64,000 nt of DNA from an uncultured Chryseobacterium sp. (GTDB lineage Bacteria; Bacteroidota; Bacteroidia; Flavobacteriales_F; PHOS-HE28). The translations under genes were made by a program, and so were the position numbers. Where the stretch lies: positions 11,430-75,429 of the forward strand of contig CAZYPC010000003.1 in NCBI GenBank assembly GCA_964649165.1. Direction: 5' to 3'. Positions 4,567 through 31,174 of the stretch are shown here, in pieces (the stretch's first letter is position 1; each line of letters begins with the position of its first letter). The notes below the pieces were generated by a model. The model ran no database searches, had not been told where the DNA came from, and worked only from the letters and a program-made list of their open reading frames with translations.

Positions 4567-4679
4567 CAGAACAAGGGGTTTCCGGCGAAGATATCGCACA
4601 CTGCTGTACGCCTCCGAACGTTCCACCCCGTGGTTGATGGACGGTTGTGGATAGGTTGTGACGCGACCGCATCAGGCCC

Positions 4680-4735
4680 AAAAAAAAGCGAAGCCCCCCG
4701 GAACCCCGGAGTTTCATCCAGGGCCGGGGGGCTTC
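4680..4735 (-). terminator. Rho-independent terminator of paralog B (minus strand)
   Basis: GAAGCCCCCCGG...CCGGGGGGCTTC 12-bp stem immediately 3' of the gene, followed on the minus strand by a T8 tract (A8 on plus at 4681-4688). Confidence 0.7.
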
Positions 4736-4756
4736 GTCTATCAGGTCCGTCGATCC

Positions 4757-6673: not shown

Positions 6674-6884
6674 ATAGGTCAGGTCTTTCGTTTTTTCTGA
6701 AGGAGCGGCCAATTTAACCGGTTGGCGGCTGAGTCCGATCGTTGTTCGGGATCTTCCTCACGGTCCATCACCGGCCATCTTTCAGACGCCACGGAGGGCA
6801 TTCGCCGTTGCAGGACCGCAGGCCATGGACCCATTGGGTCTATACAGGTCCAACCGGTCCTGTGTGATCTTCCGGCTGGGGAAG

Positions 6885-6929
6885 TTGCGAAAAGATGAAC
6901 GCCCCCCGGGGAACCGGGAGGCGTTCATC
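6885..6929 (-). terminator. Rho-independent terminator of paralog C (minus strand)
   Basis: GAACGCCCCCCGG-ggaa-CCGGGAGGCGTTC hairpin 3' of gene 6946.., followed on the minus strand by a TCTTTTCG tract. Confidence 0.6.
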
Positions 6930-6945
6930 AGATGTGATGTCGGTA

Positions 6946-8820: not shown

Positions 8821-8977
8821 GGGTCGTTGGGGTTGTTGCAATAAGGGGTTGAGGGGCGAAAGTAGTTACGAGCCGTTGTCCATGGGATAAATGGAGTGCC
8901 AGGTCCTCGTCACGGAATGCGCGTTCCGTTTCCAACGTTCGCACGAAGCGGTCATTCGACACGTGGCCTAGGGAGGG

Positions 8978-10750: not shown

Positions 10751-10882
10751 GGATCTGTTCCCGTCCTCGAACGTAGGTGGCGCACTGATCCGTACCGGCG
10801 CGTTGACGTTCTGGAGCGAAGGGCCGCGAAAGTAGCCCAAGTCAGTACGTGGCCCCGTGCTTGAAGCGGACGCCAGGAAATG

Positions 10883-10908
10883 AAAAGGTCCCCTCGCGGA
10901 GACCTTTT
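10883..10908 (-). terminator. hairpin terminator of paralog E
   Basis: AAAAGGTC-ccctcgcgga-GACCTTTT hairpin with T-rich flanks, 25 nt downstream of the stop of gene 10933..12759. Confidence 0.5.
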
Positions 10909-10932
10909 CTGTCACGGTCGATCGTGGGCCCG

Positions 10933-12759
10933 TCACCGTCGCGCTTGGTGGACGAGTTTCACCGTTGACCGCACACCACTTGATCCAACCATCACCGTGT
11001 AGACCCCTGCTCCAAGATCCTCACCATCCACGGTGAAGCGTTGTTCTCCGGCAGGCAGGTGGCCGAGGTTCCCGTTCCGCACCAGACGACCCGCCGCATC
11101 GCGCATTTCCCAGCGAACCGCTCCTGCGCGTTCGTTCGTGAAGCTGACTGTCGCCTCGCTCTCGAATGGCGATGGCCATGCGCGCAGTCCCGCCCTCACG
11201 GGCTCCAATACTTCCACGCCTACATCGTTGGCGAGCCTCATGCGCACCATGGGTGTGGCGGTCGTGTAGTACCATGATCCGGAATCGAGCGGACGGACAA
11301 AGGAGAGTTGTGGCTCGCTGGTACCGCTCGTCCCGGTGAAGACGTTCCCGTAGTCGGTCTGCACGTAAACACAGGCCAGGTACATCCTTTCGTTATCCAG
11401 CGTTGTTGGTATGAGCAGGGGCAGGTGAATGAAGTGTGTACCTCCGTACGCGTTGATGTCCGACTCCGAAATGGTGTAGAGGTCGCTGCTGCCCACGTAG
11501 CTGTTCAGTCCTTCGTAGACCATCGCTGTGATCAAGGCGCCAGGTTCTGTTCCCGGGCCCACGGCCACATCCACGCCTTCCAAGGTGCGATCATATCCCT
11601 GCACCCAGAAGCGGTTGCCCAATTCATATCCCTCCCCACCGTTGTCGCGCGAATTATCGACCTGGCCTTCGTCGCGGGCAAAGGCCTCCTGGTCGATGCG
11701 GATGGTGAACTCCTTCACGTTGTCGCCCGGTTCGGCATCTTCCTGGTCCTGCAGGATGGTGAACACATAGTGATAGTCCCCCACCACGTCCGGCGGCTCG
11801 ATGCCTGCAAGCACTAGCGTATCCTGCGCTGTCGGGGCCAACGAGATGGCTGGACTGATGTGGGTGGTGGTAAAGCCATCAGGGCCGGTCACCTCCGCGC
11901 GGAGGCGCACATTGGTCTGTACCAGGCTACCGTTGTTCGCGATCACGGCCTGATAGCTCAACGGGCGTACTTCGCCTTGTGGGTAGCTCGTACAGGGTGT
12001 TCCATAGTATCCTGTGCCCGGAGCGTGTTCTTCACCGATGAGATCCACCATCGTCAGGTTGTCCTGTGGGACCGGCAGGAGCGAGACCTCATCCACCTGC
12101 CAGCTGTAGGTGTATCCTTCATCGCTGATCCATTCGAAACGGATGCGGATGTCGTCGGAGATGGGCGTCAGCGCCGAACTGATGTTCAGTAACACCGTTT
12201 GCGCGCTTGGGGCACCCGGCGTCATCTGGTTACCGGGCAGGTCCTGGTTCACCGGGTAGGTCATCCAGTGATCCCCGCCATCACCGCTCACGTGCACGAG
12301 CGTCTGATCATCGTTCAGTTGGCGGAAGCTCTGTTCGAACCGCAGCAACATATAGTGCGTGCTTCCGAAGCCCAGCAGTGGGGGCGATGTGATCGTTGTG
12401 TTCTCCGGTGATCCGGCTGTGCCGTGGGCGTCACTGTCGGCCTGGATCCAATGACCTCCCGGATAGCCGGAGGTGCCTTGGAGCGGTCCCGGAGTGTAGC
12501 CTTCATCATTGCCGGTGCTGGTGAGTTCCCAAGGAACATTCCCGACCGGTGTCTCTACCGTCCAGCCGTTCAGTCCGTTCTCGAAATTCTCCGTCATCAG
12601 CGTCAGTGCATCGGACCGGTCGCCCGCCCTGCCCGCAGGTCGGTCACCGGAGACGAGTGCCGGAGTCTTGTGGTTCAGGACAGGTGCTTGAGCTGTCCCC
12701 TGTTGTGCGGCGAGCCATAAAGGCATCGACAGCAGCGCGATGGTAGATGTGCTTCGCAT
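10933..12759 (-). CDS. secreted MAM-like domain protein with T9SS CTD, paralog E
   Basis: Signal peptide MRSTSTIALLSMPLWLAAQ. TENFENGLNGWTVETPVGNVPWELT MAM-like motif. C-terminal ...GVYTVMVGSSGVRSTVKLVHQARR CTD. Confidence 0.7.
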   Translation of the reverse strand: MRSTSTIALLSMPLWLAAQQGTAQAPVLNHKTPALVSGDRPAGRAGDRSDALTLMTENFENGLNGWTVETPVGNVPWELTSTGNDEGYTPGPLQGTSGYPGGHWIQADSDAHGTAGSPENTTITSPPLLGFGSTHYMLLRFEQSFRQLNDDQTLVHVSGDGGDHWMTYPVNQDLPGNQMTPGAPSAQTVLLNISSALTPISDDIRIRFEWISDEGYTYSWQVDEVSLLPVPQDNLTMVDLIGEEHAPGTGYYGTPCTSYPQGEVRPLSYQAVIANNGSLVQTNVRLRAEVTGPDGFTTTHISPAISLAPTAQDTLVLAGIEPPDVVGDYHYVFTILQDQEDAEPGDNVKEFTIRIDQEAFARDEGQVDNSRDNGGEGYELGNRFWVQGYDRTLEGVDVAVGPGTEPGALITAMVYEGLNSYVGSSDLYTISESDINAYGGTHFIHLPLLIPTTLDNERMYLACVYVQTDYGNVFTGTSGTSEPQLSFVRPLDSGSWYYTTATPMVRMRLANDVGVEVLEPVRAGLRAWPSPFESEATVSFTNERAGAVRWEMRDAAGRLVRNGNLGHLPAGEQRFTVDGEDLGAGVYTVMVGSSGVRSTVKLVHQARR

Positions 12760-17930: not shown

Positions 17931-19232
17931 TCACGACCTGAGCGTGGCGTCCAGTGCTTCGCACCAGGCCGTTCCGATCCGGTCGATGTGCGCATCCGTG
18001 TGCGCTGCGCAGATAAAGCCTACCTCATATCCGGAAGGTGCCGCGTACACGCCGCGCTCAAGCAGGGCCGCGTGCAGTTTCGCGTAGCTCTTCATGCTGC
18101 CCGGGTCTATCGCGCTCGCTTCCTTGATGTGTTCGCCCCGCGCGAAGAAGCTCCAGAAGATCGAACCGAGGTGATCGACGTGGCAGTCGTATCCCTTCGA
18201 CCTCGCATGTGTGTTCACGCGGTCGCACAGCGTTGCGGTCTTCCGTTCCAGGTCCGGGTAGAATCCCGGTTTCGTGCATTCCTGCAATTGCGCGAGCCCG
18301 GCGGCCATCGCGACCGGATTGCCGCTGAGCGTGCCCGCTTGGTAGACCGGTCCGTCGGGCGCGATGTGCTTCATCAGTTCGAGCAGCCCGCCGTACGCCC
18401 CCACGGGCATGCCCCCGCCGATGATCTTGCCATAGGTCACCAGGTCCGGGATGATGCCGTAATGCGCCGTGGCCCCGCCGAAGCCGATGCGGAATCCGCT
18501 GATGACCTCATCGAAAATGAGCACGCCGCCATGCTTCGTGCACAGCTCACGTAGTTTCAGCAAGAACGACTTGTCCTGCAGGAGTAGCCCGTTGTTCGCC
18601 GGCACGGGTTCGATGATGGCGCAGGCGATGCGGTCCCCATGCTTCGCGAAGGCGGCTTCCAGTGCGGCCTCGTCGTTCAACGGAACGACGATGGTGAGCG
18701 CCGCGAGCGCTTCAGGAACGCCCGCCGAAGACGACGTGCCGAACGTCGCCAACCCGCTGCCCGCGTTCACCAACAGGCTGTCGAAGTGCCCGTGGTAGCA
18801 GCCGTCGAATTTGATGATGAGGTCCCGCTTCGTTGCACCGCGCGCAAGACGGATCGCGCTCATCACCGCCTCGGTACCGCTGCTGGTAAAGCGCATTCGC
18901 TGGATGAACGGGTTGCGCTCCATGATGAAGGAGGCCAGCGCATTCTCCTCCTCCGTCGGCGCACCGAACGTGCTGCCCTTGGCTGCTGTTCGTGTGATGG
19001 CCTCGACCACGCGGGGATGCGCGTGCCCGAGGATGAGCGGCCCCCAGCTATGGCACAGGTCGATGAAGCGGTTGCCATCGGCGTCGATGACCTCGGCGCC
19101 TTCGCCGCGCGCGAAGAACAGGGGCGTGCCACCGACACTCTTGAACGCACGGACGGGTGAATTCACCCCGCCAGGGAAGAGTTGAAGGGCCTTTTGGTAC
19201 AGCTGCTCGGAGCGTGTGCGTGCAATGGACAT
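17931..19232 (-). CDS. hemL: glutamate-1-semialdehyde 2,1-aminomutase
   Basis: 433 aa. N-terminal SEQLYQKALQLFPGGVNSPVRAF... PLP class-III aminotransferase fold. Full-length match to HemL architecture. Confidence 0.95.
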   Translation of the reverse strand: MSIARTRSEQLYQKALQLFPGGVNSPVRAFKSVGGTPLFFARGEGAEVIDADGNRFIDLCHSWGPLILGHAHPRVVEAITRTAAKGSTFGAPTEEENALASFIMERNPFIQRMRFTSSGTEAVMSAIRLARGATKRDLIIKFDGCYHGHFDSLLVNAGSGLATFGTSSSAGVPEALAALTIVVPLNDEAALEAAFAKHGDRIACAIIEPVPANNGLLLQDKSFLLKLRELCTKHGGVLIFDEVISGFRIGFGGATAHYGIIPDLVTYGKIIGGGMPVGAYGGLLELMKHIAPDGPVYQAGTLSGNPVAMAAGLAQLQECTKPGFYPDLERKTATLCDRVNTHARSKGYDCHVDHLGSIFWSFFARGEHIKEASAIDPGSMKSYAKLHAALLERGVYAAPSGYEVGFICAAHTDAHIDRIGTAWCEALDATLRS

Positions 19233-19284
19233 CGGTCAGGTTTCGGGGCGGCGAAGCTCCTACTTTCGTCGGCCTACCCGTCAC

Positions 19285-20595
19285 ATGTCCGTCACCTTCG
19301 AGAATTCCCTCGCCTTCGCCCAGCGTATGGACCAGCAGGATCCGCTGCGCGACCTCCGCAACGAGTTCTTGTTCCCGCAACACAACGGTACCCCCGTCAT
19401 CTATTTCACGGGCAACTCGCTCGGCCTTCAACCGAAGGGCGCCGCCGCCGCGTTGAAGCAGGAGCTGGACGATTGGGCCACCTTCGGGGTGGAAGGGCAC
19501 TTCCAGGCGAAGAATCCCTGGTATCCCTATCACGAGTTCTTCAGCGAGAGCCTGGCGCGCATCGTGGGTGCGAAGCCGACGGAAGTGGTCGCCATGAACG
19601 GGCTGACGACGAACCTTCACCTGCTTATGGTGTCGTTCTATCGGCCCAGCGGGAAGCGAACGAAGATCCTTTGTGAGGAACGACCGTTCCCGAGCGACAC
19701 GTATGCCTTCAAGTCACAAGCCGAATTCCATGGGCTCGACGCGAACAGCACGGTGATCGGCATGAAGCCGCGCGCCGGTGAGCATACGTTGCGCACCGAG
19801 GACATCGTGAAGCGCATCGAAGAACTCGGCGATGAACTCGCGCTCGTCTGCTTCGGTGGCGTGAACTTCCTGACCGGTCAGGCCTTTGATATGAGATCCA
19901 TCACCGAGGCCGGACAGCGGGTCGGTGCTGTGGTCGGCTTCGATCTCGCGCATGCTGCTGGCAACCTCAAGCTCGCGATGCACGATTGGAGCGTGGACTT
20001 CGCCTGTTGGTGCAGCTACAAGTACCTCAACAGCGGACCGGGAAGCATCGCGGGCGCGTTCGTTCACGAAAGACATCACCGCGAGAAGCTTCCGCGCTTC
20101 GCGGGCTGGTGGGGCCACGACAAGAACGAGCGCTTCCTGATGGAACCCGAGTTCAAACCGATGGCGAGCGCCGAAGCGTGGCAGTTGAGCAATGCCCCGG
20201 TCTTCAGCATGGCCGTGCATCGGGCGTCGCTCGACCTGTTCGACCGCGCAGGTATGGATGCGCTCCGCGCGAAGAGCGAACAGCTCACCGGTTTCCTGAA
20301 ACTGGTGCTGAATGAGATCTCGGTGGAGCACGCGAACCTCTTCGAGATCATCACGCCGAACGACCCTGCGGAACGCGGTTGCCAACTGAGCCTGCTTGTG
20401 CGCGAGAACGGAAGGGCACTCTTCGATGCGCTCACCAAGAACGGCGTGGTCGTCGACTGGCGCGAACCGAATGTCATCCGGATGGCGCCGGTGCCACTGT
20501 ACAACAGTTTTGAGGATGTGTTCCGTTGCGGTGAAGTGTTGAACAACGCATTGCGCGCTAACGCCTTCGCCGACGCTTCGGCGAGCAAAGCATGA
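19285..20595 (+). CDS. kynU: kynureninase
   Basis: Internal ATG (MSVTFENSLAFAQRMDQQDPL...) of ORF 19216..20595. Class-V aminotransferase fold with the conserved kynureninase N-terminal region. ATGA overlap with the downstream KMO gene. Confidence 0.85.
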   Translation: MSVTFENSLAFAQRMDQQDPLRDLRNEFLFPQHNGTPVIYFTGNSLGLQPKGAAAALKQELDDWATFGVEGHFQAKNPWYPYHEFFSESLARIVGAKPTEVVAMNGLTTNLHLLMVSFYRPSGKRTKILCEERPFPSDTYAFKSQAEFHGLDANSTVIGMKPRAGEHTLRTEDIVKRIEELGDELALVCFGGVNFLTGQAFDMRSITEAGQRVGAVVGFDLAHAAGNLKLAMHDWSVDFACWCSYKYLNSGPGSIAGAFVHERHHREKLPRFAGWWGHDKNERFLMEPEFKPMASAEAWQLSNAPVFSMAVHRASLDLFDRAGMDALRAKSEQLTGFLKLVLNEISVEHANLFEIITPNDPAERGCQLSLLVRENGRALFDALTKNGVVVDWREPNVIRMAPVPLYNSFEDVFRCGEVLNNALRANAFADASASKA

Positions 20596-21938
20596 GTAAC
20601 ATCACGATCGTCGGCGGTGGACTTGTGGGGAGCCTGCTCGCTGTCTTCCTCGCGAAACGCGGCCACAAGGTGAATGTGTTCGAGCGCCGCGGCGATCCAC
20701 GCAAGACGGATGTGTACGCGGGGCGCAGCATCAACCTCGTCGTTTCGCACCGCGGCTGGACGGCCTTGCGTGCGGCCGGTGTGGAGGATGCCGTGAAGGC
20801 GATCACCGTGCCCGTGTACGCGCGCATGATGCACGACCGCGATGGCAAGCTCAATCGTGTGCCGTACAGCATCGATAACCGCGCGATCTATTCGGTTTCA
20901 CGCGGCGAACTGAACCGTCGATTGCTCACGGAGGCGGAGAAGCTGCCGAACGTGAAGCTGTTCTTCGACCATAGATGTTTGGATGTCGATCTCGCGAACG
21001 CGGAATGTGTCTTCGAGAACGGCGGTGCGCGCGTGACCCGGAAGGCGGACGTTGTCTTCGGCAGCGATGGAGCATTCAGCGCCGTGCGCCAGAAGATGAT
21101 GCAAGGGCGCTTCACGTACAGCCAGGAGTACATCGAGCACGACTACAAGGAGGTGGCCTTCCCTGCGAACGCGGACGGTACGCCCAAGATGGACCCGCAG
21201 TGCCTGCACATCTGGCCGCGCCGCTACTACATGATGATGGGCCTGGCCAACCAGGACGGTGGCTTCACCGGTACGCTCTTCATGCCGAACACGCACACGG
21301 AGAACGCCCCGGGCTTCGATGTCGTGAAGACCGAGGAACAAGTGACGAAGTTCTTCGCTGACCATTTCGCGGATGCGATGCCCATCGTGCCTGACCTGGT
21401 GCAGCAATACCTGCGCAACCCTCAGAGCTCGCTTGTGATCATCCGCTGCAATCCGTGGCAGGTGAATGGCAAGGTGGCGCTGATCGGTGATGCGGCCCAC
21501 GCGATCGTTCCCTTCTACGGCGAGGGCATGAACGCGGGCTACGAGGATTGCAAGGTGCTGAACGACCTGCTGAACGAACACGGCGACGACAACTGGTCCA
21601 AGGTGCTCCCGCGCTACGCCGCCAAACGCAAGCCGAACGGGGACGCCATCGCCGACCTGTCACTCCGCAACTTCATCGAGATGCGCGACCTGGTGGCCGA
21701 TCCGAAGTTCCTGCTGCGCAAGAAGATCGAAGGCCACCTGCAAGCGAAGCACCCGGACCAATGGCTGCCGCTCTACAGCCAGGTGAAGTTCAGCGACATC
21801 GAGTACAAGGACGCGTGGAAGGAGGGGCTGCGGCACGACCGGATCATGGAGGAGGTGCTGGCGATGCCGGGGATCGAGGAGAAGTGGGGGAGTGAAGAGG
21901 TGGAGAAGAAGGCGCTGCAATTGATGCGGGCAACCTAG
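20592..21938 (+). CDS. kmo: kynurenine 3-monooxygenase (FAD-dependent)
   Basis: N-terminal FAD-binding IVGGGLVGSLLAVFLAKRG. About 450 aa. Translationally coupled to kynU. Confidence 0.8.
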   Translation: MSNITIVGGGLVGSLLAVFLAKRGHKVNVFERRGDPRKTDVYAGRSINLVVSHRGWTALRAAGVEDAVKAITVPVYARMMHDRDGKLNRVPYSIDNRAIYSVSRGELNRRLLTEAEKLPNVKLFFDHRCLDVDLANAECVFENGGARVTRKADVVFGSDGAFSAVRQKMMQGRFTYSQEYIEHDYKEVAFPANADGTPKMDPQCLHIWPRRYYMMMGLANQDGGFTGTLFMPNTHTENAPGFDVVKTEEQVTKFFADHFADAMPIVPDLVQQYLRNPQSSLVIIRCNPWQVNGKVALIGDAAHAIVPFYGEGMNAGYEDCKVLNDLLNEHGDDNWSKVLPRYAAKRKPNGDAIADLSLRNFIEMRDLVADPKFLLRKKIEGHLQAKHPDQWLPLYSQVKFSDIEYKDAWKEGLRHDRIMEEVLAMPGIEEKWGSEEVEKKALQLMRAT

Positions 21939-22477: not shown

Positions 22478-22605
22478 ACCTCTGAGCCCTGGCAGGTGGA
22501 TCTGACTCATCCCTTGATGGATCTTGGCGACCGGCTGTCGAAGCCATTCAGAATGACGACATCAGACGCGTGCGCGCCGCTATCTTTGGACAACCAACGC
22601 GCCCC

Positions 22606-22842
22606 ATGTCCGAGACCGAACTGAAGAAGCGCCTCATCGGCCGCATACAGCGTTCGCGGAACAGCGCCTTGTTGCGCGAGGCCTACCGCTTGATGGGAAC
22701 GGATGCTGCCGACCTTGAGCCGTACAAGCTGAGCAAGGAGCAGAAGGCGTCCATCGCGAAGGGTAAAAGGGACATCAAGGAGAGTCGCACGCTTTCCGCA
22801 GCGAAGGCGAACAAGGCCATTGATGAGTGGCTCGGCAAGTAG
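22606..22842 (+). CDS. putative type II antitoxin (addiction-module component)
   Basis: About 78 aa charged helical protein (internal ATG MSETELKK of ORF 22570..22842). 16-nt overlap with the downstream RelE/ParE-like gene. Confidence 0.5.
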   Translation: MSETELKKRLIGRIQRSRNSALLREAYRLMGTDAADLEPYKLSKEQKASIAKGKRDIKESRTLSAAKANKAIDEWLGK

Positions 22843-23120
22843 TCTGGTCGTTGAACGCGCAGAGGGAGAAGGTCGCCATTCTGCACTACTGGGTGGAATG
22901 CAACGGTTCCACGGCCTACAGCGCCAAACTTGATGAGATGTTCAGGTCCGCTTTGAGCCGCGTAGCCCAGCATCCAAAGCTCGGTCGGTCGACGAGTGAT
23001 CCTGACGTCCGGATGAAAGTCGTCGGCGAGTTCGAGATCTTCTATTCGCTCACGCAGGACACTGTACATGTGTTGTCGGTCTGGCGCGGCACAAGGGATC
23101 CTGTGGGCAGACCCTATTGA
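22827..23120 (+). CDS. type II toxin, RelE/ParE family
   Basis: 97 aa. ILHYWVE...VHVLSVWRGTRDP motifs characteristic of the ParE/RelE fold. Confidence 0.6.
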   Translation: MARQVVWSLNAQREKVAILHYWVECNGSTAYSAKLDEMFRSALSRVAQHPKLGRSTSDPDVRMKVVGEFEIFYSLTQDTVHVLSVWRGTRDPVGRPY

Positions 23121-23135
23121 CGCCACCCTGCGCGC

Positions 23136-23951
23136 ATGCCCTACCTCGCCCGCTTCAGCCTGAACGCTCCGCGCAGCCATCCGTTCCCGTTCGATATCCC
23201 TTCAGTGCGCTTCGCCAAGGACATCGGCCTCGGTGCGCCGGTGACCTGCTTCGTCGGAGACAACGGCACGGGCAAGTCCACCTTGTTGGAGGTGTTGGCC
23301 TACCGGCTCCAGCTTCCGCGCATGGATGGCTCCGGCTACGGTGGGCGAGGGTTCGCAGCGGCCCGCAAACTCTTGCCTTTCCTGACGGTGGAATTCGCCT
23401 TGCATCGTACCACGGGCTTTTTCTTCCGGGCGGAGGATTTCGGTGACCTGCTGAACAGTGTGGACCGGCAGGACCAACGGCTGCATGCTCAGCTGGAGGA
23501 GTTGCATGGCGATGTACCGGACCACATCATCGCGGCGATGAAGGACAGCTCGAACCACCAGTTGCATCGGGTGCGCAGGAACTATGGCCAGGAACTGCAG
23601 GGATTCTCCCACGGCGAGGCCTACCTGCACATCTTGCAGCAACAGGTCCGTGGGCCAGGGATCTACCTGCTGGATGAACCCGAAGCTGCTCTTTCACCGG
23701 CGCGGCAACTCGCCCTGCTCCATTTCATGCAGGAACATTTGAAGGAGCACCGGTCCCAGTTCATCATCGCTACCCATGCGCCCATCATCATGGCCTTCCC
23801 GAAAGCGCTGTTGTACGAGATCGCCCCGGATGGCATGGAACTGAAACGATTGGAGGAATTAGAGAACTACACGTTCACCAAAGCGTTCCTTGCTGACCCA
23901 GGACGGTTCCTGGCCGCGCTGGACAACCGGGATGCGCGGTCTTTCGGATGA
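23136..23951 (+). CDS. stand-alone ABC/SMC-type (AAA_21-like) ATPase
   Basis: Walker A GDNGTGKST. Q-loop/signature region. Walker B LLDEPEAALS. H-loop ATHAP. No transmembrane or partner domain. 271 aa. Confidence 0.6.
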   Translation: MPYLARFSLNAPRSHPFPFDIPSVRFAKDIGLGAPVTCFVGDNGTGKSTLLEVLAYRLQLPRMDGSGYGGRGFAAARKLLPFLTVEFALHRTTGFFFRAEDFGDLLNSVDRQDQRLHAQLEELHGDVPDHIIAAMKDSSNHQLHRVRRNYGQELQGFSHGEAYLHILQQQVRGPGIYLLDEPEAALSPARQLALLHFMQEHLKEHRSQFIIATHAPIIMAFPKALLYEIAPDGMELKRLEELENYTFTKAFLADPGRFLAALDNRDARSFG

Positions 23952-24015
23952 GCCGCATGTCGCTGTCAGCCCAAGTGGGGACCATAAATGAGAGGCGGCC
24001 GACTTCCTTTGGGCC

Positions 24016-24543
24016 GTGGACACCGCCGCGACGTTCAGAGCGCTGTACGATGCGCACGCCCGCATGGTCTACAACCTCTGCCTGAACCATCTGCGCAACG
24101 CGGATGAAGCGGCCGAAGCCACACAGGATGTCTTCGTGAAGGTCCACGAAAAGCTGTCGGGTTTCAAGGGCGATGCGACCCTGCGCACCTGGATCTACAG
24201 GATCACGATCAATACGTGTCTGGACCGGTTGAAGGCGCGCAAGCGGAAGAAACGCGCGTTGTTCGGCTGGTTGAGCCTTTCGGATGAACATGTCGAACGC
24301 GCCGCATCCGCCGTGTTCGATCACCCTGGCGTTGCCGCTGAGGATCGAGAGGCCCTCGAACGCTTGTTCGTGATGGTCGATGACCTGCCCGGACAGCAGC
24401 GGACCGCCTTGCTGCTGAAGACCTCCGAGGACCTGTCGATGGTCGCCATCGCCGAGGTGATGGGTATTTCATCGAAGGCGGTGGAATCGCTTTTGTCCCG
24501 CGCCCGTGCCAACCTGCGTCAACGCCTGCCCAACGAAGGATGA
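24016..24543 (+). CDS. RNA polymerase sigma-70 factor, ECF subfamily
   Basis: Region 2 (VKVHEKLSGFKG...WIYRITIN) and region 4 (LPGQQRTALLLKTSEDLSMVAIAEVMGIS) motifs. 175 aa. Confidence 0.85.
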   Translation: MDTAATFRALYDAHARMVYNLCLNHLRNADEAAEATQDVFVKVHEKLSGFKGDATLRTWIYRITINTCLDRLKARKRKKRALFGWLSLSDEHVERAASAVFDHPGVAAEDREALERLFVMVDDLPGQQRTALLLKTSEDLSMVAIAEVMGISSKAVESLLSRARANLRQRLPNEG

Positions 24544-24574: not shown

Positions 24575-24847
24575 ATGGACACGAACGCCCCGGAAGACCT
24601 GCTGAAGCGCGTAGCGCGCGTCGATCCGCCACCGTTCCTGTTCACGCGCATAGAAGCCCGCCTGGCGAGCGGGGCATTGATGCGGGTGCCGCGCGCTCGA
24701 CTGGTCGCCGTGGCTTGTGGGCTGGCACTGCTGCTGCTGGCGAACGTGAGCGTGATCATGCGGGCGTCACGCGCTGCGGCCGGCCCATCTTTGTGCGACG
24801 TGGCCGAAGGAATGGGCATGAACGTGACCAACCAGCTCTACCAATGA
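24575..24847 (+). CDS. putative anti-sigma factor (single-pass membrane protein)
   Basis: Immediately downstream of the ECF sigma gene. About 90 aa with one TM helix LVAVACGLALLLLANVSVIM. Internal ATG of ORF 24506..24847. Confidence 0.45.
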   Translation: MDTNAPEDLLKRVARVDPPPFLFTRIEARLASGALMRVPRARLVAVACGLALLLLANVSVIMRASRAAAGPSLCDVAEGMGMNVTNQLYQ

Positions 24848-25296
24848 CGCGCACCCGCTTGTTGTCCATCGCGGTGGTGGCGCTGGTAGTGCTCAACCTG
24901 ACCACGCTCGGTGTGCTCTTCTTCCGAAGGCCGCCGCACCCGCACGGGCGGCATGAGGGACCGAGGGCGATCATCATCGAACGGCTGCAACTGGATGCGG
25001 ACCAGGTGAAGGTCTATGAGGGCTTGATCCGGGACCACCGTGGCAAGATCGAAGAGCTCGACCGGCACATGCTGGAGTTGCGCGGGCGCCTCTACGATGC
25101 TGAGTATCCCTTGTCCGCGGACTCGATCATCTCCCTCATCGGCGAAACGCAGAGCACGATCGAGCGTACGCACACCGACCACTTCGCGCGCATCCGTGCG
25201 ATCTGCCGGCCCGATCAGTTGCCGTTGTTCGACAGTATGACCAAAGATCTCGCCGGTTTCTTCCGGAACGGCCCACCACCGCTGAAAGAGCCGTAA
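24844..25296 (+). CDS. membrane-anchored periplasmic sensor-like protein (CnrX / Spy-CpxP-like, His-rich)
   Basis: ATGA overlap with the anti-sigma gene. N-terminal TM anchor followed by HPHGRHEGP and a helical LxxQ-containing domain (LQLDADQ, ICRPDQ). Third member of a sigma / anti-sigma / sensor trio. Confidence 0.4.
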   Translation: MTRTRLLSIAVVALVVLNLTTLGVLFFRRPPHPHGRHEGPRAIIIERLQLDADQVKVYEGLIRDHRGKIEELDRHMLELRGRLYDAEYPLSADSIISLIGETQSTIERTHTDHFARIRAICRPDQLPLFDSMTKDLAGFFRNGPPPLKEP

Positions 25297-25973
25297 TGAA
25301 GGCGCTGCTGACGATCGTGTTGGGCGCCGCCCTGAGCATTCCCGATACCCGCGCGCAACGCATCGCGTTCACCCCGGTGGTACGCGATGTTCCGCTTGTG
25401 CTGGACAAGCCGTTCGTGCTCGGTGATCAAGGGCCGGTCACCATCACGCAGTTCAAGTTCTATGTCGGTCAATTCACGTTCTACCGCGCAGGGAAGCCGC
25501 TCGTGTATGACCACAGCTACTATCTCATCGACGCCGCGGATACCACGACCTTCGATGTGGGGACGGTCTTTCGGCCAACTCCCATCGACTCGGTTTCCTT
25601 CCTGCTTGGTGTGGACAGCCTCACCAACGTGAGCGGCGTCTTCGGCGGTGACCTCGATCCGATCAAGGGCATGTACTGGACATGGAACAGCGGTTACATC
25701 AACCTGAAGCTGGAAGGCACGAGCCCACGTTCACCCTACGCGACGCATGCGTTCGAATTGCATTTGGGCGGCTACCTGCCACCGTTCCCTACGGTGCAGC
25801 GCGTAACCCTTCCATTGCACGGCCTCGGACCTTGGCACTTCGGTGTTGACGTTGTACCGCTTCTCGAGTCCGCTGACGTCAGTACGCGATGCAATGTGAT
25901 GTCCCCGGGAGAACAAGCGCTGCGACTTTCCAAGGCCTCGGTTACGATGTTCAAGAGCGATGCGCTGCGGTAA
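25296..25973 (+). CDS. MbnP-like periplasmic (copper-binding-type) protein, WxW motif
   Basis: Signal peptide MKALLTIVLGAALSIPDTRAQ. YWTWNSGY (WxW) motif. Predicted beta-rich. About 225 aa. Overlaps the downstream di-haem peroxidase gene by 14 nt. Confidence 0.5.
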   Translation: MKALLTIVLGAALSIPDTRAQRIAFTPVVRDVPLVLDKPFVLGDQGPVTITQFKFYVGQFTFYRAGKPLVYDHSYYLIDAADTTTFDVGTVFRPTPIDSVSFLLGVDSLTNVSGVFGGDLDPIKGMYWTWNSGYINLKLEGTSPRSPYATHAFELHLGGYLPPFPTVQRVTLPLHGLGPWHFGVDVVPLLESADVSTRCNVMSPGEQALRLSKASVTMFKSDALR

Positions 25974-26988
25974 ATGGTTGGTGATCCCGTTGACAGGCGT
26001 GCTGTGCGCCTTGATGGCCGCTGGAACCATGCCGGCACATCCGGTACAACTCGGGGTGCCGAAAGGTTGGCCCCCGATGAGCTACGATCTTTCTCGGAAC
26101 CCGTTGACGCAGGAGGGCATCGCGCTCGGCCGGAAGCTCTTCCATGATCCCCTTCTTTCGCTCGACAGCAGTACTTCCTGCTCGAGTTGTCATCTCTCCT
26201 ACACGGCCTTCAGCCACACGGACCACCAGCTGAGCCACGGCATCCACGACAGCATCGGCACGCGCAACGCGCCCGCCCTGATGAACCTGGCGTGGAGCAA
26301 GACCTTCATGTGGGACGGCGCGGTGAACCACCTGGATATGCAGCCCCTCGCGCCGATCAACCATTCCGGGGAGATGGGTGAGAGCACGCAGCATGTCGTG
26401 TTCAAACTGGAGAACAGCCGCACCTATCGTCGTCTTTTCGCGGAGGCGTTCGGTGACTCCATGATCCTGAGCGACCGCATGTTGAAAGCGCTCGCGCAGT
26501 TCCAGCTTTCGCTCGTGTCCGCAGGTTCCCGCTATGACCGGATGAAGGCCGGCGTCGAGCTTTTCACCGAACAAGAGCGGAACGGCTACCTGTTGTTCCA
26601 GGCGCATTGTAACACCTGCCACAAGGAGCCGCTCTTCACCACCGGCGAGTTCGCCAACAACGGCCTGCCCCCGGACAGTCTGCTGCGGGATGGCGGGCGC
26701 ATCCGCATCACGCACGACCCCGAGGATTCGCTGAAATTCAAGATCCCCACGTTGCGCAACGTCGAGTATTCGTTCCCCTACATGCACGACGGGCGGTTCA
26801 AACGGTTGCGCCAGGTGATCGACCACTACGCGAGCGGGATCATGACCTCCGGATCATCGGCCCCCCAGTTGAAGAAGCCGATCATGCTGACACCGGAGGA
26901 ACGCACGGACCTCGTGGCCTTCCTCCTCACCCTGAGCGACCGGGAGTTCGTGATGGACCCGGACCATGCGGCGCCCAGGAACTACTGA
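25960..26988 (+). CDS. di-haem cytochrome c peroxidase family protein (MauG/MbnH-like)
   Basis: Two CxxCH haem motifs (CSSCH, CNTCH). Signal peptide. 342 aa, with the overall CCP/MauG length and spacing. Confidence 0.8.
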   Translation: MRCGKWLVIPLTGVLCALMAAGTMPAHPVQLGVPKGWPPMSYDLSRNPLTQEGIALGRKLFHDPLLSLDSSTSCSSCHLSYTAFSHTDHQLSHGIHDSIGTRNAPALMNLAWSKTFMWDGAVNHLDMQPLAPINHSGEMGESTQHVVFKLENSRTYRRLFAEAFGDSMILSDRMLKALAQFQLSLVSAGSRYDRMKAGVELFTEQERNGYLLFQAHCNTCHKEPLFTTGEFANNGLPPDSLLRDGGRIRITHDPEDSLKFKIPTLRNVEYSFPYMHDGRFKRLRQVIDHYASGIMTSGSSAPQLKKPIMLTPEERTDLVAFLLTLSDREFVMDPDHAAPRNY

Positions 26989-27036: not shown

Positions 27037-28857
27037 ATGAAGTCCACCACCGCACTCGCCTGTCTTCTCCTGGCGTCCGGAACAAGGGCCCAGCTGGGCC
27101 CGAACATCACGCAATGGCTCGTGAACACGACGGGCACGACGGGTCGCCACTACGTATCCGGCAACAGCACACCGATCAATGACGCGGTGCAGGTGAACGT
27201 GCAGAACGTGAAGTACAGCGCGAGCCAGGTGTACGTGACCTGCACGGGCATCCCGTCGTATGTCACCGGCCCTTTCCTGGACGGGAATCCTTCGTCGGCA
27301 ACGAACCAGAACGCGATCTTCCGGTTGCCGCGCATCCCTGTACAGAACACCGGAACGCCCACCAATACCACGGGTGGCAACATCGGCATCTTCATCAATG
27401 GCGTCGCGTTCTTCGACTACCGCGACGGTGTTTCCTGGAGGAACGCCACGCAGCAATTGTGCGGAGGTCCGATCCAACCGATGTGCACGGGTGATGGTGT
27501 CTGGAACCGCGACGCCGTGCCTGCGGAGCGTGCGGGCTTCGATTGCTCGAAGGGCCACCCGGCCATGGGCAACTACCATCATCATCAGAACCCGAGCGCC
27601 TTCAACCTGGACATCAATGTGATCTCCACGGTATGCAACCTGTACGCGGCGGATGGTCTCTATGCCATCGACAGCACGCGACATTCCCCGTTGCTGGGAT
27701 TCGCGTATGATGGGTTCCCGGTGTATGGCGCTTACGGCTACGCGAATGCGGATGGCACCGGGGGTCTCAAGCGCATCCGCTCGAGCTACCAGGTCCGGAA
27801 CATCACAGTGCGCACGCACTACGCGAACGGCACGGATGTCACCGATGGCCCTGCCGTGAACACGACCTATCCGCTCGGTTACTTCCGCGAGGACTATGAG
27901 TACATCGCGCATGCGGAACCGTACTATCTGGATGCGCACAACGGCCGTTCCTGCGTAACCCCCGAATATCCCGGCGGCACGTACGCCTACTTCTGTTCCG
28001 TGGACGCGAACTGGAATTCAGCTTACCCGTACATCGTGGGGCCGACGTTCTACGGCGTGGTGACGGGAGCGAAGGTGGCCTCCATCGCTGAGACGGTCAC
28101 CACGTACAGTTGGGTGAAGCTGGCGGCACGCGTCTACCTGCAGGGACCATATGATAGCGGTTCCGGTCTGATGAACGATGGGCTGCGCGCTGCTTCATTG
28201 CTTCCGACCACACAGCCGTACACCGCCTTGGGATACAGCTTTACGGGGACAACGGTGACCAATGGGACAGTGGCTCCGGGAGTCTTCACCACGACCACGG
28301 GGAACAACGCCATCGTCGATCATGTGATCGTTGAATTGCGCAACGCCGTCACACCTTCCACCGTGCTCGCGAGTTGCCCCGCCCTGCTGCAGCGCGATGG
28401 TGATGTGGTGGCGCTCGATGGCCGATCCACACTTGTCATCGCCATCGCACCGGGCACCTACCACGTGGCCCTGCGTCATCGCAACCATCTCGGTGTGATG
28501 ACGGGCACCGCGGTCGCGCTGGGCAACAACTCCACCACGGTGGATCTCACGTCCACCGGAACAACGTTGTACGGTAGCAATGCCACAGCGACGGTAGGTG
28601 CAACGCGTTTGTTGTGGTCAGGTGATGTCAGCTACAACAAGACGCTCGCCTACACCGGCAGCGGGAACGATCGCGATCCCATCCTCGTGACAGTGGGCAG
28701 CACCACGCCGAACAACACGGTTGCGGCTTACAGCTCATCCGACGTCGACCTCGATGGTTCGGTCAAATACACCGGCAGCAACAACGACCGGGACCGTATC
28801 CTGGTGAATGTCGGCAGCACGACACCCAACAGCATCCAGAACGAACAACTCCCCTGA
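27037..28857 (+). CDS. secreted YHYH-domain (His-rich) protein with C-terminal dockerin-like repeats
   Basis: Signal peptide. GNYHHHQNPSAF, DSTRHSPLLGFAYDGFPVYGAYGY and YAYFC motifs. C-terminal repeated DxDxDG/NNDRD calcium-binding-like repeats. About 70 % identical to the next gene across the core. Confidence 0.6.
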   Translation: MKSTTALACLLLASGTRAQLGPNITQWLVNTTGTTGRHYVSGNSTPINDAVQVNVQNVKYSASQVYVTCTGIPSYVTGPFLDGNPSSATNQNAIFRLPRIPVQNTGTPTNTTGGNIGIFINGVAFFDYRDGVSWRNATQQLCGGPIQPMCTGDGVWNRDAVPAERAGFDCSKGHPAMGNYHHHQNPSAFNLDINVISTVCNLYAADGLYAIDSTRHSPLLGFAYDGFPVYGAYGYANADGTGGLKRIRSSYQVRNITVRTHYANGTDVTDGPAVNTTYPLGYFREDYEYIAHAEPYYLDAHNGRSCVTPEYPGGTYAYFCSVDANWNSAYPYIVGPTFYGVVTGAKVASIAETVTTYSWVKLAARVYLQGPYDSGSGLMNDGLRAASLLPTTQPYTALGYSFTGTTVTNGTVAPGVFTTTTGNNAIVDHVIVELRNAVTPSTVLASCPALLQRDGDVVALDGRSTLVIAIAPGTYHVALRHRNHLGVMTGTAVALGNNSTTVDLTSTGTTLYGSNATATVGATRLLWSGDVSYNKTLAYTGSGNDRDPILVTVGSTTPNNTVAAYSSSDVDLDGSVKYTGSNNDRDRILVNVGSTTPNSIQNEQLP

Positions 28858-28880: not shown

Positions 28881-30257
28881 ATGAACAGAATATTCCCGCT
28901 CATTATGGCCCTGGCTATGTCCGCCTTCGCCTCCGCACAGACCGATCCGGTGATCATTGATTGGTTGTTCAACACAACGGGCATCACCGGCTCGCACTAT
29001 GTGTCCGGTAACTCGACGCCGATCCAGGATGCGGCGCAGGCGAACGTGCAGCAAGTGCAGTATTCGGACGACTGGTCTTACGTACACACGCAGGGCATTC
29101 CCGCATACATCACCGGACCGTTCCTGGACGGCAACCCGAACCAGGCGGGCGGGCAGAACGCCATCTTCAGGATCCCGCGTACGCCACAGCCCAACCAAGG
29201 CACCTTGGATGTGACCACTGGCGGTGATATCGGTGTGTTCATCAACGGGGTCGCGCTGTTCGATTTCCGCGATGGCTGCGGCTGGAACCCCAACACCAAC
29301 GCGCTTTGCGGAGGTCCCGGCAATCCGCCCTGTCCTGGTCCGCCCGGCCAACTGCAGGATTGGAACCGCGATGCGATCGTGGCCGAACGGGCAGGTTTCG
29401 ATTGTGCCAAAGGGCACCCGCAACAACAAGGGACTTACCACCACCATCAGAACCCCAGCGCGTTCAACCTCGACCTCACGGTGCTCTCCAACGTCTGCGA
29501 CCTCTACCTCGCCGATGGTCTTTATGCCATCGACAGCACGGAGCATTCACCGCTGCTGGGCTTCGCGTTCGATGGCTATCCGATCTATGGAGCATACGGC
29601 TATGCGAACGTGGACGGCACAGGCGGCATCACGCGCATCCGGTCGGGCTATCAGTGGCGGAACATCACCACGCGCACTACGCATGCCGATGGTACCGATG
29701 TGAGCGATGGCCCTGCTGTGAACGAGACCTACCCGATCGGCTATTTCCGCGAGGACTATGAATTCCTGACCCATCCGGAGCCTTTCTACCTGGACGAACA
29801 CAACGGTCGCTTCTGTGTGACGCCGGAGTTTCCCTCCGGCACGTACGCCTACTTCTGCACGGTCGACGCCGCTTGGAACTCGGTCTATCCCTATGTCGTT
29901 GGCCCAACCTTCTACGGTGTGAAGACGGCGACCCTGGTAACGACCATCACGGAGGCTGTGACCACCTACGATCCCTTGACCGCGGCTGTGGCTTCCATCG
30001 CGCCGGAAGATGACCGTGTGACCGTGTTCCCCAACCCCGGTGGCGATCTGATCGCGGTGCAGGTGCATGGCATCGTTCGCGAGAACCTGCCCATCGCACT
30101 TTACGACATGAGCGGCAAGCTCGTGCGTTCGGAGGTGATCAAGCAGGGAAGTACGATCTGGTACCTGGACACCCGCACCCTGTACGATGGCTTGTACAAC
30201 GTGCGCATCGGACAGGGCCGTGGGGCCATCTGCACCCAGGTGCAGGTGGTCCATTGA
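28881..30257 (+). CDS. secreted YHYH-domain (His-rich) protein with T9SS C-terminal sorting domain
   Basis: Paralog of 27037..28857 (GTYHHHQNPSAF etc.). C-terminal VFPNPGGDL...LYDMSGKLV...GLYNVRIGQ... CTD. Confidence 0.65.
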   Translation: MNRIFPLIMALAMSAFASAQTDPVIIDWLFNTTGITGSHYVSGNSTPIQDAAQANVQQVQYSDDWSYVHTQGIPAYITGPFLDGNPNQAGGQNAIFRIPRTPQPNQGTLDVTTGGDIGVFINGVALFDFRDGCGWNPNTNALCGGPGNPPCPGPPGQLQDWNRDAIVAERAGFDCAKGHPQQQGTYHHHQNPSAFNLDLTVLSNVCDLYLADGLYAIDSTEHSPLLGFAFDGYPIYGAYGYANVDGTGGITRIRSGYQWRNITTRTTHADGTDVSDGPAVNETYPIGYFREDYEFLTHPEPFYLDEHNGRFCVTPEFPSGTYAYFCTVDAAWNSVYPYVVGPTFYGVKTATLVTTITEAVTTYDPLTAAVASIAPEDDRVTVFPNPGGDLIAVQVHGIVRENLPIALYDMSGKLVRSEVIKQGSTIWYLDTRTLYDGLYNVRIGQGRGAICTQVQVVH

Positions 30258-30334: not shown

Positions 30335-31174
30335 ATGAAGCGCTTGGTCCTGATCGGTTGTTTGTTCGTGCCCGTGTTGCTCTCAGCGCAGGGGTTGATG
30401 GAACGCAAGCACCCGGACATTTTCCCGCTCGATGGCAAGATGAAGCGCAGCGGCTTCTTCATTGCGCCGGGCGTGACATGGGCGCTTGCACCGTTCAAGG
30501 ACCGGGAGGAACACGATGAATTCGGTTCGGATACGATGGTCGATGCGGTGTATCACGGCATTGGCAAGCTCGGGCTGTATCTCGAAGCGGGCTGGTTCAT
30601 CTCCACGCGCGATCCAGTGATCATCGACTATTGGGACTTCGGGCTGGCGTACAAACAATTGAAAGGGCGGGAAGAGTCGGAGGGCTCGTTCGCACGGGGT
30701 GATAGCATTGGCCAGTGGTTCAGTGAGGGGGACTTCAACGATCAGCATCTCACCCTTGCGATCAACGCGAACAAACTGTTCTGCGTGCGCGACTATCGGT
30801 TCTTCCAGTTCAGCCTGGGGGCCAACGTGGACTGGCGCTTCGGAGAGGGCCGTGACTTCGAGGGCTTCTTCGTGCCCGACTCACAGGACTTTCCGCCGGA
30901 GTTCATCGGCCAGGCGCACGCCAAACTCGGCTTCGGCTTCAAGCTCACGCAGCAGTTGATGATCATTCCCGCGATCGAGACACCTTTCTTCAGCGTAATG
31001 CCGGAGGATCAGGGTTTCGGACGCCTTCAGTGGTTCAACACCACGTACCGCCCGCTCATCTTCAGTGTCCGTTTCCTCTTCCTCCGCTATCCCAACGGAT
31101 GGGCATGCCCTCCGGTGAAGAACAACGAGTTCGAACGGCACAAGGTGGTGAACCCGGAGTACAAGCGGAGGTAG
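30335..31174 (+). CDS. hypothetical exported / outer-membrane-like protein
   Basis: Internal ATG with signal peptide MKRLVLIGCLFVPVLLSAQG. Alternating aromatic / beta-strand-like pattern. C-terminal F-rich end. Confidence 0.45.
   Translation: MKRLVLIGCLFVPVLLSAQGLMERKHPDIFPLDGKMKRSGFFIAPGVTWALAPFKDREEHDEFGSDTMVDAVYHGIGKLGLYLEAGWFISTRDPVIIDYWDFGLAYKQLKGREESEGSFARGDSIGQWFSEGDFNDQHLTLAINANKLFCVRDYRFFQFSLGANVDWRFGEGRDFEGFFVPDSQDFPPEFIGQAHAKLGFGFKLTQQLMIIPAIETPFFSVMPEDQGFGRLQWFNTTYRPLIFSVRFLFLRYPNGWACPPVKNNEFERHKVVNPEYKRR

Follow-up and report, generated by a model that had tools for sequence, protein, structure and literature searches.

To our knowledge, the MbnP/MbnH pair is the only system in which a MauG-type enzyme builds a copper site by converting a protein tryptophan into kynurenine. 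The physiological role of this pair is unclear even in methanotrophs, and we know of no MbnP client. Here we describe a gene pair of this kind at positions 25296-26988 of a 64-kb stretch of DNA from an uncultured Chryseobacterium sp. (contig CAZYPC010000003.1), the whole of which is referred to as the window; in this pair, the gene of an exported protein of 225 amino acids (aa) overlaps that of a 342-aa di-haem enzyme. Our analysis makes it probable that the two are a true MbnP/MbnH system, belonging to a short, Cys-less subtype, placed within a cassette that extends from an extracytoplasmic function (ECF) sigma factor to YHYH-domain proteins and working by the copper mechanism proposed below.

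The closest described system is that of Methylosinus trichosporium OB3b (structures 7L6G and 6e1c), with which the window pair has both protein families and the gene order, MbnP before MbnH, in common. In OB3b MbnP, the first Trp of a WxW motif is found as Kyn174, and copper is bound by His, Met, kynurenine and water (PMC11951088). In the alignment, the first Trp of the window protein's WxW motif takes the kynurenine position, and a Met lying two residues upstream of it and a His some 30 residues downstream are conserved; the enzyme is in both cases of the MauG type with a Tyr-ligated haem, the Tyr of the window enzyme (Y290) being predicted. In the M. sporium locus (L082), an ECF sigma factor gene is followed by FecR, a TonB receptor, MbnP (326 aa) and MbnH, and the genes of the pair overlap by 4 nucleotides (nt), compared with 14 nt in the window; an ECF sigma factor lies upstream in both. 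The two systems differ, however, in the length of MbnP, 290-326 aa in canonical proteins against 225 aa here, and in that the window cassette has no FecR-type anti-sigma factor, TonB receptor or methanobactin genes, but carries a 90-aa membrane protein, a Spy-like protein and YHYH proteins secreted by the type IX secretion system (T9SS) instead.

Comparable partnerships are known from gammaproteobacterial methanotrophs, where MopE/MCA2590 and CorA/CorB also place a kynurenine copper protein beside a di-haem peroxidase-family gene (PMC3621798, PMC11951088). Their copper-binding component is surface-exposed or secreted and in this respect resembles the T9SS-secreted, His-rich YHYH protein, although the folds of MopE and CorA are unlike that of MbnP (PMC11951088) and their copper ligands are two His and kynurenine. 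A search of the Protein Data Bank (PDB) with the YHYH profile, in which the MopE and CorA structures were included, found no sequence relationship. With MauG, which acts on pre-methylamine dehydrogenase, the window enzyme has in common two haems, a His-Tyr ligated haem (as predicted here), an inter-haem Trp and the expected oxidation of a partner Trp (PMC11892367). Its score for TTQ_mauG, the second-best NCBIfam family (174 bits), is however far below the cut-off of 444 bits; it is accompanied by no methylamine dehydrogenase genes, its partner has the MbnP fold, and the expected product would be kynurenine and not tryptophan tryptophylquinone.

Annotation pipelines already label some members of the present clade as MbnP family or MbnP-like, and Pfam covers the clade; the title of a 2019 paper by Kenney et al. 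also implies pairs beyond methanobactin operons. The initial annotation of the window had suggested a non-canonical use of the pair in a background without methanobactin genes. In this regard, no methanobactin genes (mbnB/mbnC, MATE or TonB transporter) or other copper genes were found among the window's open reading frames (ORFs) scanned against Pfam, a search by which a short mbnA is undetectable. The absence of these genes agrees with the suggestion, but the word non-canonical overstates the case, as pairs elsewhere, conserved far beyond methanobactin producers, have been known since 2013 (Kenney & Rosenzweig 2013, PMC3621798). The short Cys-less subtype and its Spy-like/T9SS-YHYH cassette were not described in the literature searched, which excluded the neighbourhood analyses of Kenney 2019 and Manesis 2021. 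The pair as such is already recognised, and its cassette context may be new.

The overlapping pair and its conserved sites

The gene of the small protein runs from 25296 to 25973 and that of the enzyme from 25960 to 26988, both on the forward strand and with an ATG start, and the 14 nt at 25960-25973 belong to both. The two overlapping ORFs, of 225 and 342 aa, had been reported at the outset and were confirmed by the ORF list and by independent gene calls on public contigs of identical sequence, which give both genes and their overlap (L083, 4209-4886 and 4873-5901). A pattern scan with one genome per species recovered related pairs in at least 592 species genomes, mainly Bacteroidota, and all locus counts given here refer to the best 80 loci of these at least 592 genomes. 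A chance pair of ORFs is excluded, because the Pfam matches to MbnP and CCP_MauG have E-values of 7.7e-35 and 9.7e-50, respectively, and the adjacency recurs in 77 of the 80 related loci. Judged from the sequence by eye, both N-termini resemble Sec signal peptides, with MKALLTIVLGAALSIPDTRA followed by Gln in MbnP and MRCGKWLVIPLTGVLCALMAAGTMPA followed by His in the enzyme. The predicted cleavage site precedes Gln in MbnP and in both YHYH proteins of the cassette, and Gln at this place is usual in exported Bacteroidota proteins.

Residues 22-198 of the small protein match positions 5-184 of the 189 in the Pfam profile PF20243 (MbnP), with 120.9 bits against a cut-off of 27, and the canonical MbnP of M. 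sporium falls in the same family. This canonical sequence was obtained indirectly: the sequence of 6e1c was rebuilt from its alignment, and its relatives led to the M. sporium locus. In addition, the predicted model of the small protein shares its fold with the MbnP crystal structure 7L6G, which is its unique fold match, and structure alignments with canonical MbnP give an identity of only 17-20%. When the clade profile was compared with M. sporium MbnP by hhalign (E=6e-4), four residues were paired, namely M126/M173, W128/W175, W130/W177 and H156/H209, the window residue being named first. All four are invariant in 77 of 77 orthologues extracted from the genomes, and M202 is kept in 74 of them. 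At the low identity just given, these residues are nearly the sole ones kept in common with canonical MbnP, and this speaks for conservation of the site.

The motif YWTWNSGY, noticed before any of these comparisons, is found at MbnP residues 127-134. The codons of M126-Y-W128-T-W130 occupy 25671-25685 on the forward strand, with W128 at 25677-25679, and the peptide holding W128 contains GMYWTWNSGYINLK. H156, the only invariant His of the clade and a candidate copper ligand, is encoded at 25761-25763 on the same strand. The canonical WNW, including W175 of the M. sporium protein, sits at Trp/Kyn174 of the OB3b protein; by alignment, W128 is the predicted kynurenine precursor and M126 a candidate copper ligand. 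Pfam, fold, WxW alignment and the invariant Trp, His and Met residues all agree with the MbnP-like identity given to the small protein in the initial annotation. Of the checks proposed with it, the profile search matched PF20243 and CCP_MauG above the Pfam thresholds, the comparison with Methylosinus MbnP aligned the conserved W128, W130 and H156, and an assignment of the small protein to imelysin or another partner family came out negative.

The 342-aa enzyme is, by its sequence, a MauG-type di-haem protein. It matches CCP_MauG (PF03150), and its closest sequence match in the PDB is 6e1c (E=6e-39), which we take to be M. trichosporium MbnH; the 98%-identical cluster of 6e1c corresponds to Methylocystaceae MbnH. 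The two haem-binding motifs, C74-S-S-C-H78 (26179-26193) and C217-N-T-C-H221 (26608-26622), are invariant in 72 of 72 MbnH orthologues, and so is Y290 (codon 26827-26829), the predicted Tyr axial ligand of the six-coordinate haem; all three lie on the forward strand. Y290 pairs with a Tyr of 6e1c (VIDIYSEG against VIDHYASG), and the alignments with MauG stop at query residue 290 and chain residue 294, the latter presumably the MauG Tyr ligand, while that with the N. europaea peroxidase stops one residue earlier. In this regard, the sixth ligand of the six-coordinate haem is Tyr in MauG, MbnH and BthA, and Met in canonical peroxidases (PMC11892367). The inter-haem Trp, W118 within FMWDG, is aligned to a Trp of both 6e1c and 1iqc and is Trp in 65 of the 72 orthologues. 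The family, the closest structure, both CxxCH motifs and the Tyr position bear out the di-haem CCP/MauG identity first assigned to the enzyme. Six of the 72 orthologues carry Arg instead of W118 (FMRDG); among characterised members of the family, BthA is the only one reported without the inter-haem Trp (PMC11892367). Several public records label MbnH-family enzymes of Methylocystaceae as 'methanobactin export MATE transporter MbnM', apparently a propagated mis-annotation.

A conserved cassette around the pair

The best 80 loci belong mostly to Flavobacteriales, Chitinophagales and Saprospiraceae; two of them (L052, L053) come from metagenome-assembled genomes (MAGs) of Ignavibacteria/Kapaibacteria, and the cultured strains Chryseobacterium formosus CCTCC AB2015118 (L048) and Parasediminibacterium sp. 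JCM 36343 (L036) are among them. Within Bacteroidota the short Cys-less subtype occurs widely, and it extends to Ignavibacteria/Kapaibacteria MAGs. MbnH lies directly downstream of MbnP in the 77 loci across several orders and two phyla, and the extrapolated distance from MbnP stop to MbnH start, with a median near -12 nt, does not exceed 60 nt in 71 of the 77; overlaps or very short gaps are also seen in the gene calls of other loci. The tight coupling stressed in the initial annotation is a conserved feature, in Methylosinus as well, whereas the stoichiometric co-expression that it was said there to suggest is a conjecture.

The annotation had taken the gene pair as the unit; the pair is real, but makes up only two genes of a six-gene cassette, which counts eight genes in the window. 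The core consists of an ECF sigma factor, a small membrane protein, a Spy/Metal_resist-like protein, MbnP, MbnH and a T9SS-secreted YHYH protein, and the recurrent families obtained by unbiased clustering of neighbours are exactly these six. YHYH (PF14240) is present in 54 of the 62 loci that have at least 1.5 kb after MbnH, and in 45 loci it starts within 400 nt of the MbnH stop. Among the 66 loci with at least 1.6 kb of upstream sequence, 36 have an ECF sigma factor within 1.8 kb upstream of MbnP and 36 a Spy/Metal_resist-like protein directly upstream of it, both counts being BLAST-based lower bounds. In the reverse direction, three YHYH proteins with T9SS domains on long contigs were followed up, and all three stand directly after sigma factor, small protein, Spy-like protein, MbnP and MbnH, with a Metal_resist match in only one of the three Spy-like proteins. 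In the window, the eight genes are packed on the forward strand, with neighbours overlapping by 1-14 nt or lying 24-77 nt apart, and comprise a second YHYH gene and a conserved ORF of unassigned family beyond the core.

Additionally, a T9SS-secreted multicopper oxidase is inserted in the cassette or adjoins it at six loci (L031, L052, L053, L064, L069, L074), and this ties the cassette to copper independently of MbnP homology. The Metal_resist match of the Spy-like protein and the conserved His and Asp residues of YHYH, a domain whose His triad and Asp are predicted to be a metal site (PMC7824862), count for the same link. The next gene after the oxidase is that of a TonB-dependent receptor, by Pfam, in L053 and one of the same size (776 aa) in L052. 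The oxidase of L031 lies at 5255-7099, and this locus also has three YHYH genes and a GNAT acetyltransferase between MbnP and MbnH. In the distant cassette of L086, YHYH is separated from MbnH by a CotH-domain protein with a T9SS sorting domain (9771-11360), and next comes a TonB_C protein.

The cassette of the window opens with the gene of a 175-aa ECF-type sigma-70 factor (24016-24543, forward strand, GTG start), which has Sigma70_r2 and Sigma70_r4_2 domains and reaches 94 bits for NCBIfam sigma70-ECF against a cut-off of 42.9; a sigma gene takes the same cassette position in L086-L089. It is followed on the forward strand by a small single-pass membrane protein of 90 aa (24575-24847), also called on the identical contigs, which has one hydrophobic stretch, LVAVACGLALLLLANVSVI, and no match in a Pfam search. 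Genes of 82-92 aa stand at its position in L086-L089, and its homologue cluster spans 20 loci; by position, it is a candidate anti-sigma factor. The third gene (24844-25296, forward strand) encodes a membrane-anchored, Spy/CpxP/Metal_resist-like periplasmic protein of 150 aa, whose start overlaps the preceding stop (ATGA) and whose stop overlaps the MbnP start by 1 nt. Its match to Metal_resist (PF13801) is a narrow pass, with 30.7 bits against a cut-off of 29.2. Searched alone against PDB sequences, the protein found no match, and the profile of 20 orthologues matched Spy (3oeo) weakly (E=0.014), with both LTxxQ-like motifs aligned. We regard it as a candidate sensor or chaperone. H65, F114, C121 and Q125 are invariant in this protein and H113 is at least 90% conserved; the conservation of H65, C121, Q125 and H113 makes a site for metal sensing conceivable.

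CnrH/CnrY/CnrX of Cupriavidus metallidurans is a metal-sensing ECF module made of a sigma factor, a single-pass protein of about 90 aa and an anchored helical protein of about 150 aa. The window has the same three-part arrangement, including the Metal_resist match, a likeness in architecture. It differs, however, in gene order, in the profile of the 150-aa protein, which goes as far as the weak Spy match and does not reach CnrX, and in that H65, H113 and C121 are not the CnrX ligand set. A generic scan of the cassette for sigma-70 promoters and terminators gave not a single promoter-like site, and the terminator-like ones did not exceed chance. Just 5' of the GTG start of the sigma gene, at about 24000-24015, lies the element TTCCTTTGG, kept at this place in the close relatives L001, L006, L007, L008 and L011, which may be a Bacteroidota-type -7 promoter box of a leaderless or very-short-leader mRNA, or a translation signal.

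Downstream of MbnH, two YHYH genes follow on the forward strand, encoding proteins of 606 aa (27037-28857; PF14240, E=1.3e-53) and 458 aa (28881-30257; PF14240, E=6.4e-53), the latter with a T9SS C-terminal sorting domain (Por_Secre_tail). The two domains score 182 and 180 bits, respectively, against a cut-off of 25. The YHYH domain also occurs in phage tail proteins and diatoms. H179, H187, H189, H222 and D231 are at least 95% conserved, and the invariant residues, which include His, Tyr, Asp, Glu and Trp, comprise W28, W135, W161, Y186 and Y236 beside the His cluster. Identity among relatives is 55-75% for YHYH, compared with 35-50% for MbnP and 50-60% for MbnH. When compared with the PDB, the YHYH profile matched T9SS sorting domains only, and a single-sequence search gave no meaningful match. 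The first YHYH protein has no recognisable T9SS sorting domain; its C-terminal 246 aa (28117-28857) contain two GS(G/N)NDRD(P/R)ILV repeats and had no match in a Pfam search.

The last gene of the eight (30335-31174, forward strand) encodes a conserved exported protein of 279 aa, for which there is a gene call in L083 and no match in Pfam or NCBIfam. Its homologues follow YHYH in 7-8 close relatives (L003-L011, L033), and genes of 287 and 295 aa with no Pfam match, compared by position alone, stand at the same place in L089 and L087. It is possible that this gene is a lineage-specific last member of the cassette, and its product could be an outer-membrane component of it.

Proposed copper mechanism and rival explanations

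The cassette probably handles periplasmic copper under the control of its sigma factor, and may do so in the service of secreted metalloproteins. We infer the following scheme for how kynurenine would be formed, copper bound and handed to YHYH, and the cassette regulated. MbnP and MbnH would be exported to the periplasm, where MbnH, through its His-Tyr ligated haem and peroxide-derived high-valent haem chemistry, would oxidise Trp128 of MbnP to kynurenine. This kynurenine would bind Cu(I) together with His156 and Met126 or Met202, in the manner of Methylosinus MbnP. MbnP would carry or buffer copper in the periplasm and would most probably serve metalloproteins of the same cassette, which fold there prior to T9SS export. 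Its clients would be YHYH and, in some genomes, the multicopper oxidase, the copper being passed to or taken from them. The cassette's own ECF sigma factor would switch it on when the small membrane protein and the Spy-like protein register an envelope or metal signal.

Several observations weigh against this scheme or against the assignments on which it rests. NCBIfam TIGR04052, the MbnP_like_WxW equivalog, is matched by residues 97-158 only, with 26.5 bits against a cut-off of 140; as judged by these scores, the window MbnP is a separate subfamily outside this curated equivalog. PDB sequence searches with the small protein and with a profile of 33 clade sequences did not find 7L6G and matched nothing, and the predicted model is least confident at residues 111-130, which hold the WxW loop (block pLDDT 58-73). 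The canonical Met two residues before His (WMVH) has no counterpart in the window protein (FELH). The four-Cys motif is absent as well: the window MbnP has a single Cys, C199, a position at which 11 of the 77 orthologues have Cys, compared with six Cys in the mature part of canonical M. sporium MbnP, and the PDB entry 7L6G names its protein 'metallo-mystery pair system four-Cys motif protein'. On the enzyme side, the best NCBIfam family is TIGR04039 (MbnH) with 201.2 bits, which misses the cut-off of 362.85. The only functional statement found on the YHYH domain describes it as enigmatic, with a His triad and an Asp, and predicts a Zn-binding hydrolase (Iyer et al., PMC7824862), and structure prediction of YHYH gave no usable model (pLDDT 39.8), probably because the alignment is too uniform (67-89% identity). 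Moreover, a shared bipartite ECF promoter was sought upstream of 45 sigma genes, with no enriched motif found. Finally, 8 of the 62 loci carry the pair without YHYH, and at L085 it has neither sigma factor nor YHYH and adjoins a two-component system; therefore, the pair does not strictly need sigma factor or YHYH.

One rival holds that the enzyme is an ordinary periplasmic, H2O2-scavenging cytochrome c peroxidase beside an unrelated exported protein, for instance of the imelysin type, with an incidental overlap. The match to 1iqc (E=1.6e-34) is indeed not far in score from that to 6e1c, and the missed MbnH cut-off fits this rival too. It is nevertheless highly improbable, as the sixth-ligand position is Tyr and not Met in every orthologue, the small protein matches MbnP in Pfam and, uniquely, in fold, and the pair is adjacent across orders and phyla; on these grounds, both the imelysin-partner and the plain-peroxidase readings were rejected. 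A different proposal makes YHYH the second or main substrate of MbnH, which would install a cofactor on an invariant Trp or Tyr in the periplasm, with MbnP as donor or accessory. Protein-bound aromatic residues are targets of MauG-type enzymes (PMC11892367, PMC11951088), YHYH has invariant Trp and Tyr residues beside its His cluster, and this YHYH subtype was found only beside MbnP-MbnH, in the reverse as in the forward comparison. The invariant WxW, His and Met of MbnP, however, already account for MbnH, all canonical proteobacterial loci, like the 8 loci above, have the pair without YHYH, and the low-confidence YHYH prediction offers no usable model, so that we hold this proposal to be improbable.

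A defence of the envelope against copper or heavy-metal stress, by the same molecular pair and opposed to a supply of copper to secreted enzymes, is unlikely, though the most probable of the rivals. Excess metal would free the sigma factor, the Spy-like protein would serve as a chaperone, MbnP would sequester toxic Cu(I) in the periplasm and the multicopper oxidase, where present, would detoxify Cu(I). Envelope-stress proteins include Spy, CpxP and ZraP, and CueO-type multicopper oxidases serve in copper detoxification; both points count for a defence role, together with the Metal_resist and weak Spy matches of the 150-aa protein, the oxidase in six loci and the absence from the cassette of FecR-type anti-sigma factor and TonB receptor, which in the canonical Methylosinus locus make up a signalling module of the uptake type. 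A defence role leaves unexplained, however, why the secreted and very highly conserved YHYH should be the most constant partner, and it sits poorly with the TonB-dependent receptor of L053 and the same-sized gene of L052. Canonical mbnPH has also reportedly been tied to copper acquisition, in work by Kenney in 2019 and by Manesis in 2021. The multicopper oxidase and the Spy-like protein fit defence; supply is in keeping with the strict association with YHYH and with the TonB receptors. Our preference for copper supply or relay over copper defence is a modest one.

A further and more specific idea, tentative and rather unlikely as it stands, is that MbnP/MbnH is a dedicated periplasmic maturation machinery for YHYH as a new class of metalloenzyme exported by the T9SS, providing either copper from the kynurenine-Cu(I) site of MbnP or a cofactor built by MbnH on one of the invariant Trp or Tyr residues of YHYH. 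If true, it would give the YHYH domain its first functional context, and kynurenine-copper proteins would act as metallochaperones for secreted enzymes. As for the proposed copper handling by MbnP/MbnH in general, a compact Cys-less version of the system is very common in environmental Bacteroidota and is wired differently from that of methanotrophs. Should its link with YHYH hold, a client for MbnP would be indicated, as would a metal and a function for the YHYH domain, and the cultured carriers C. formosus and Parasediminibacterium sp. JCM 36343 would be candidate experimental hosts.

Other genes of the window

About 2 kb upstream of the cassette, a kynureninase (KYNU_C/Aminotran_5) gene and that of a kynurenine-3-monooxygenase-like FAD enzyme overlap by 4 nt at 19216-21938 on the forward strand. 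A link of these genes to protein-bound kynurenine was considered and rejected, because their synteny is limited to close relatives (6 of the 80 loci, and L089) and the enzymes act on free kynurenine; their presence near the cassette is most likely a coincidence of the free-kynurenine/NAD pathway. Between them and the sigma gene lie, on the forward strand, two small genes at 22570-22842 and 22827-23120, which overlap by 16 nt and the second of which has a weak ParE_toxin match in L084, and an AAA_21/AAA_15 ATPase gene at 23136-23951. Taken together, the genes at 22570-23951 look like a toxin-antitoxin or defence-type insertion. Far upstream, on the reverse strand, four tandem ORFs of 608-652 aa lie at 2734-12759; their N-terminal parts had no Pfam match, and three of them have T9SS C-terminal sorting domains. 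Grouped by size and position, they look like a tandem array of secreted proteins.

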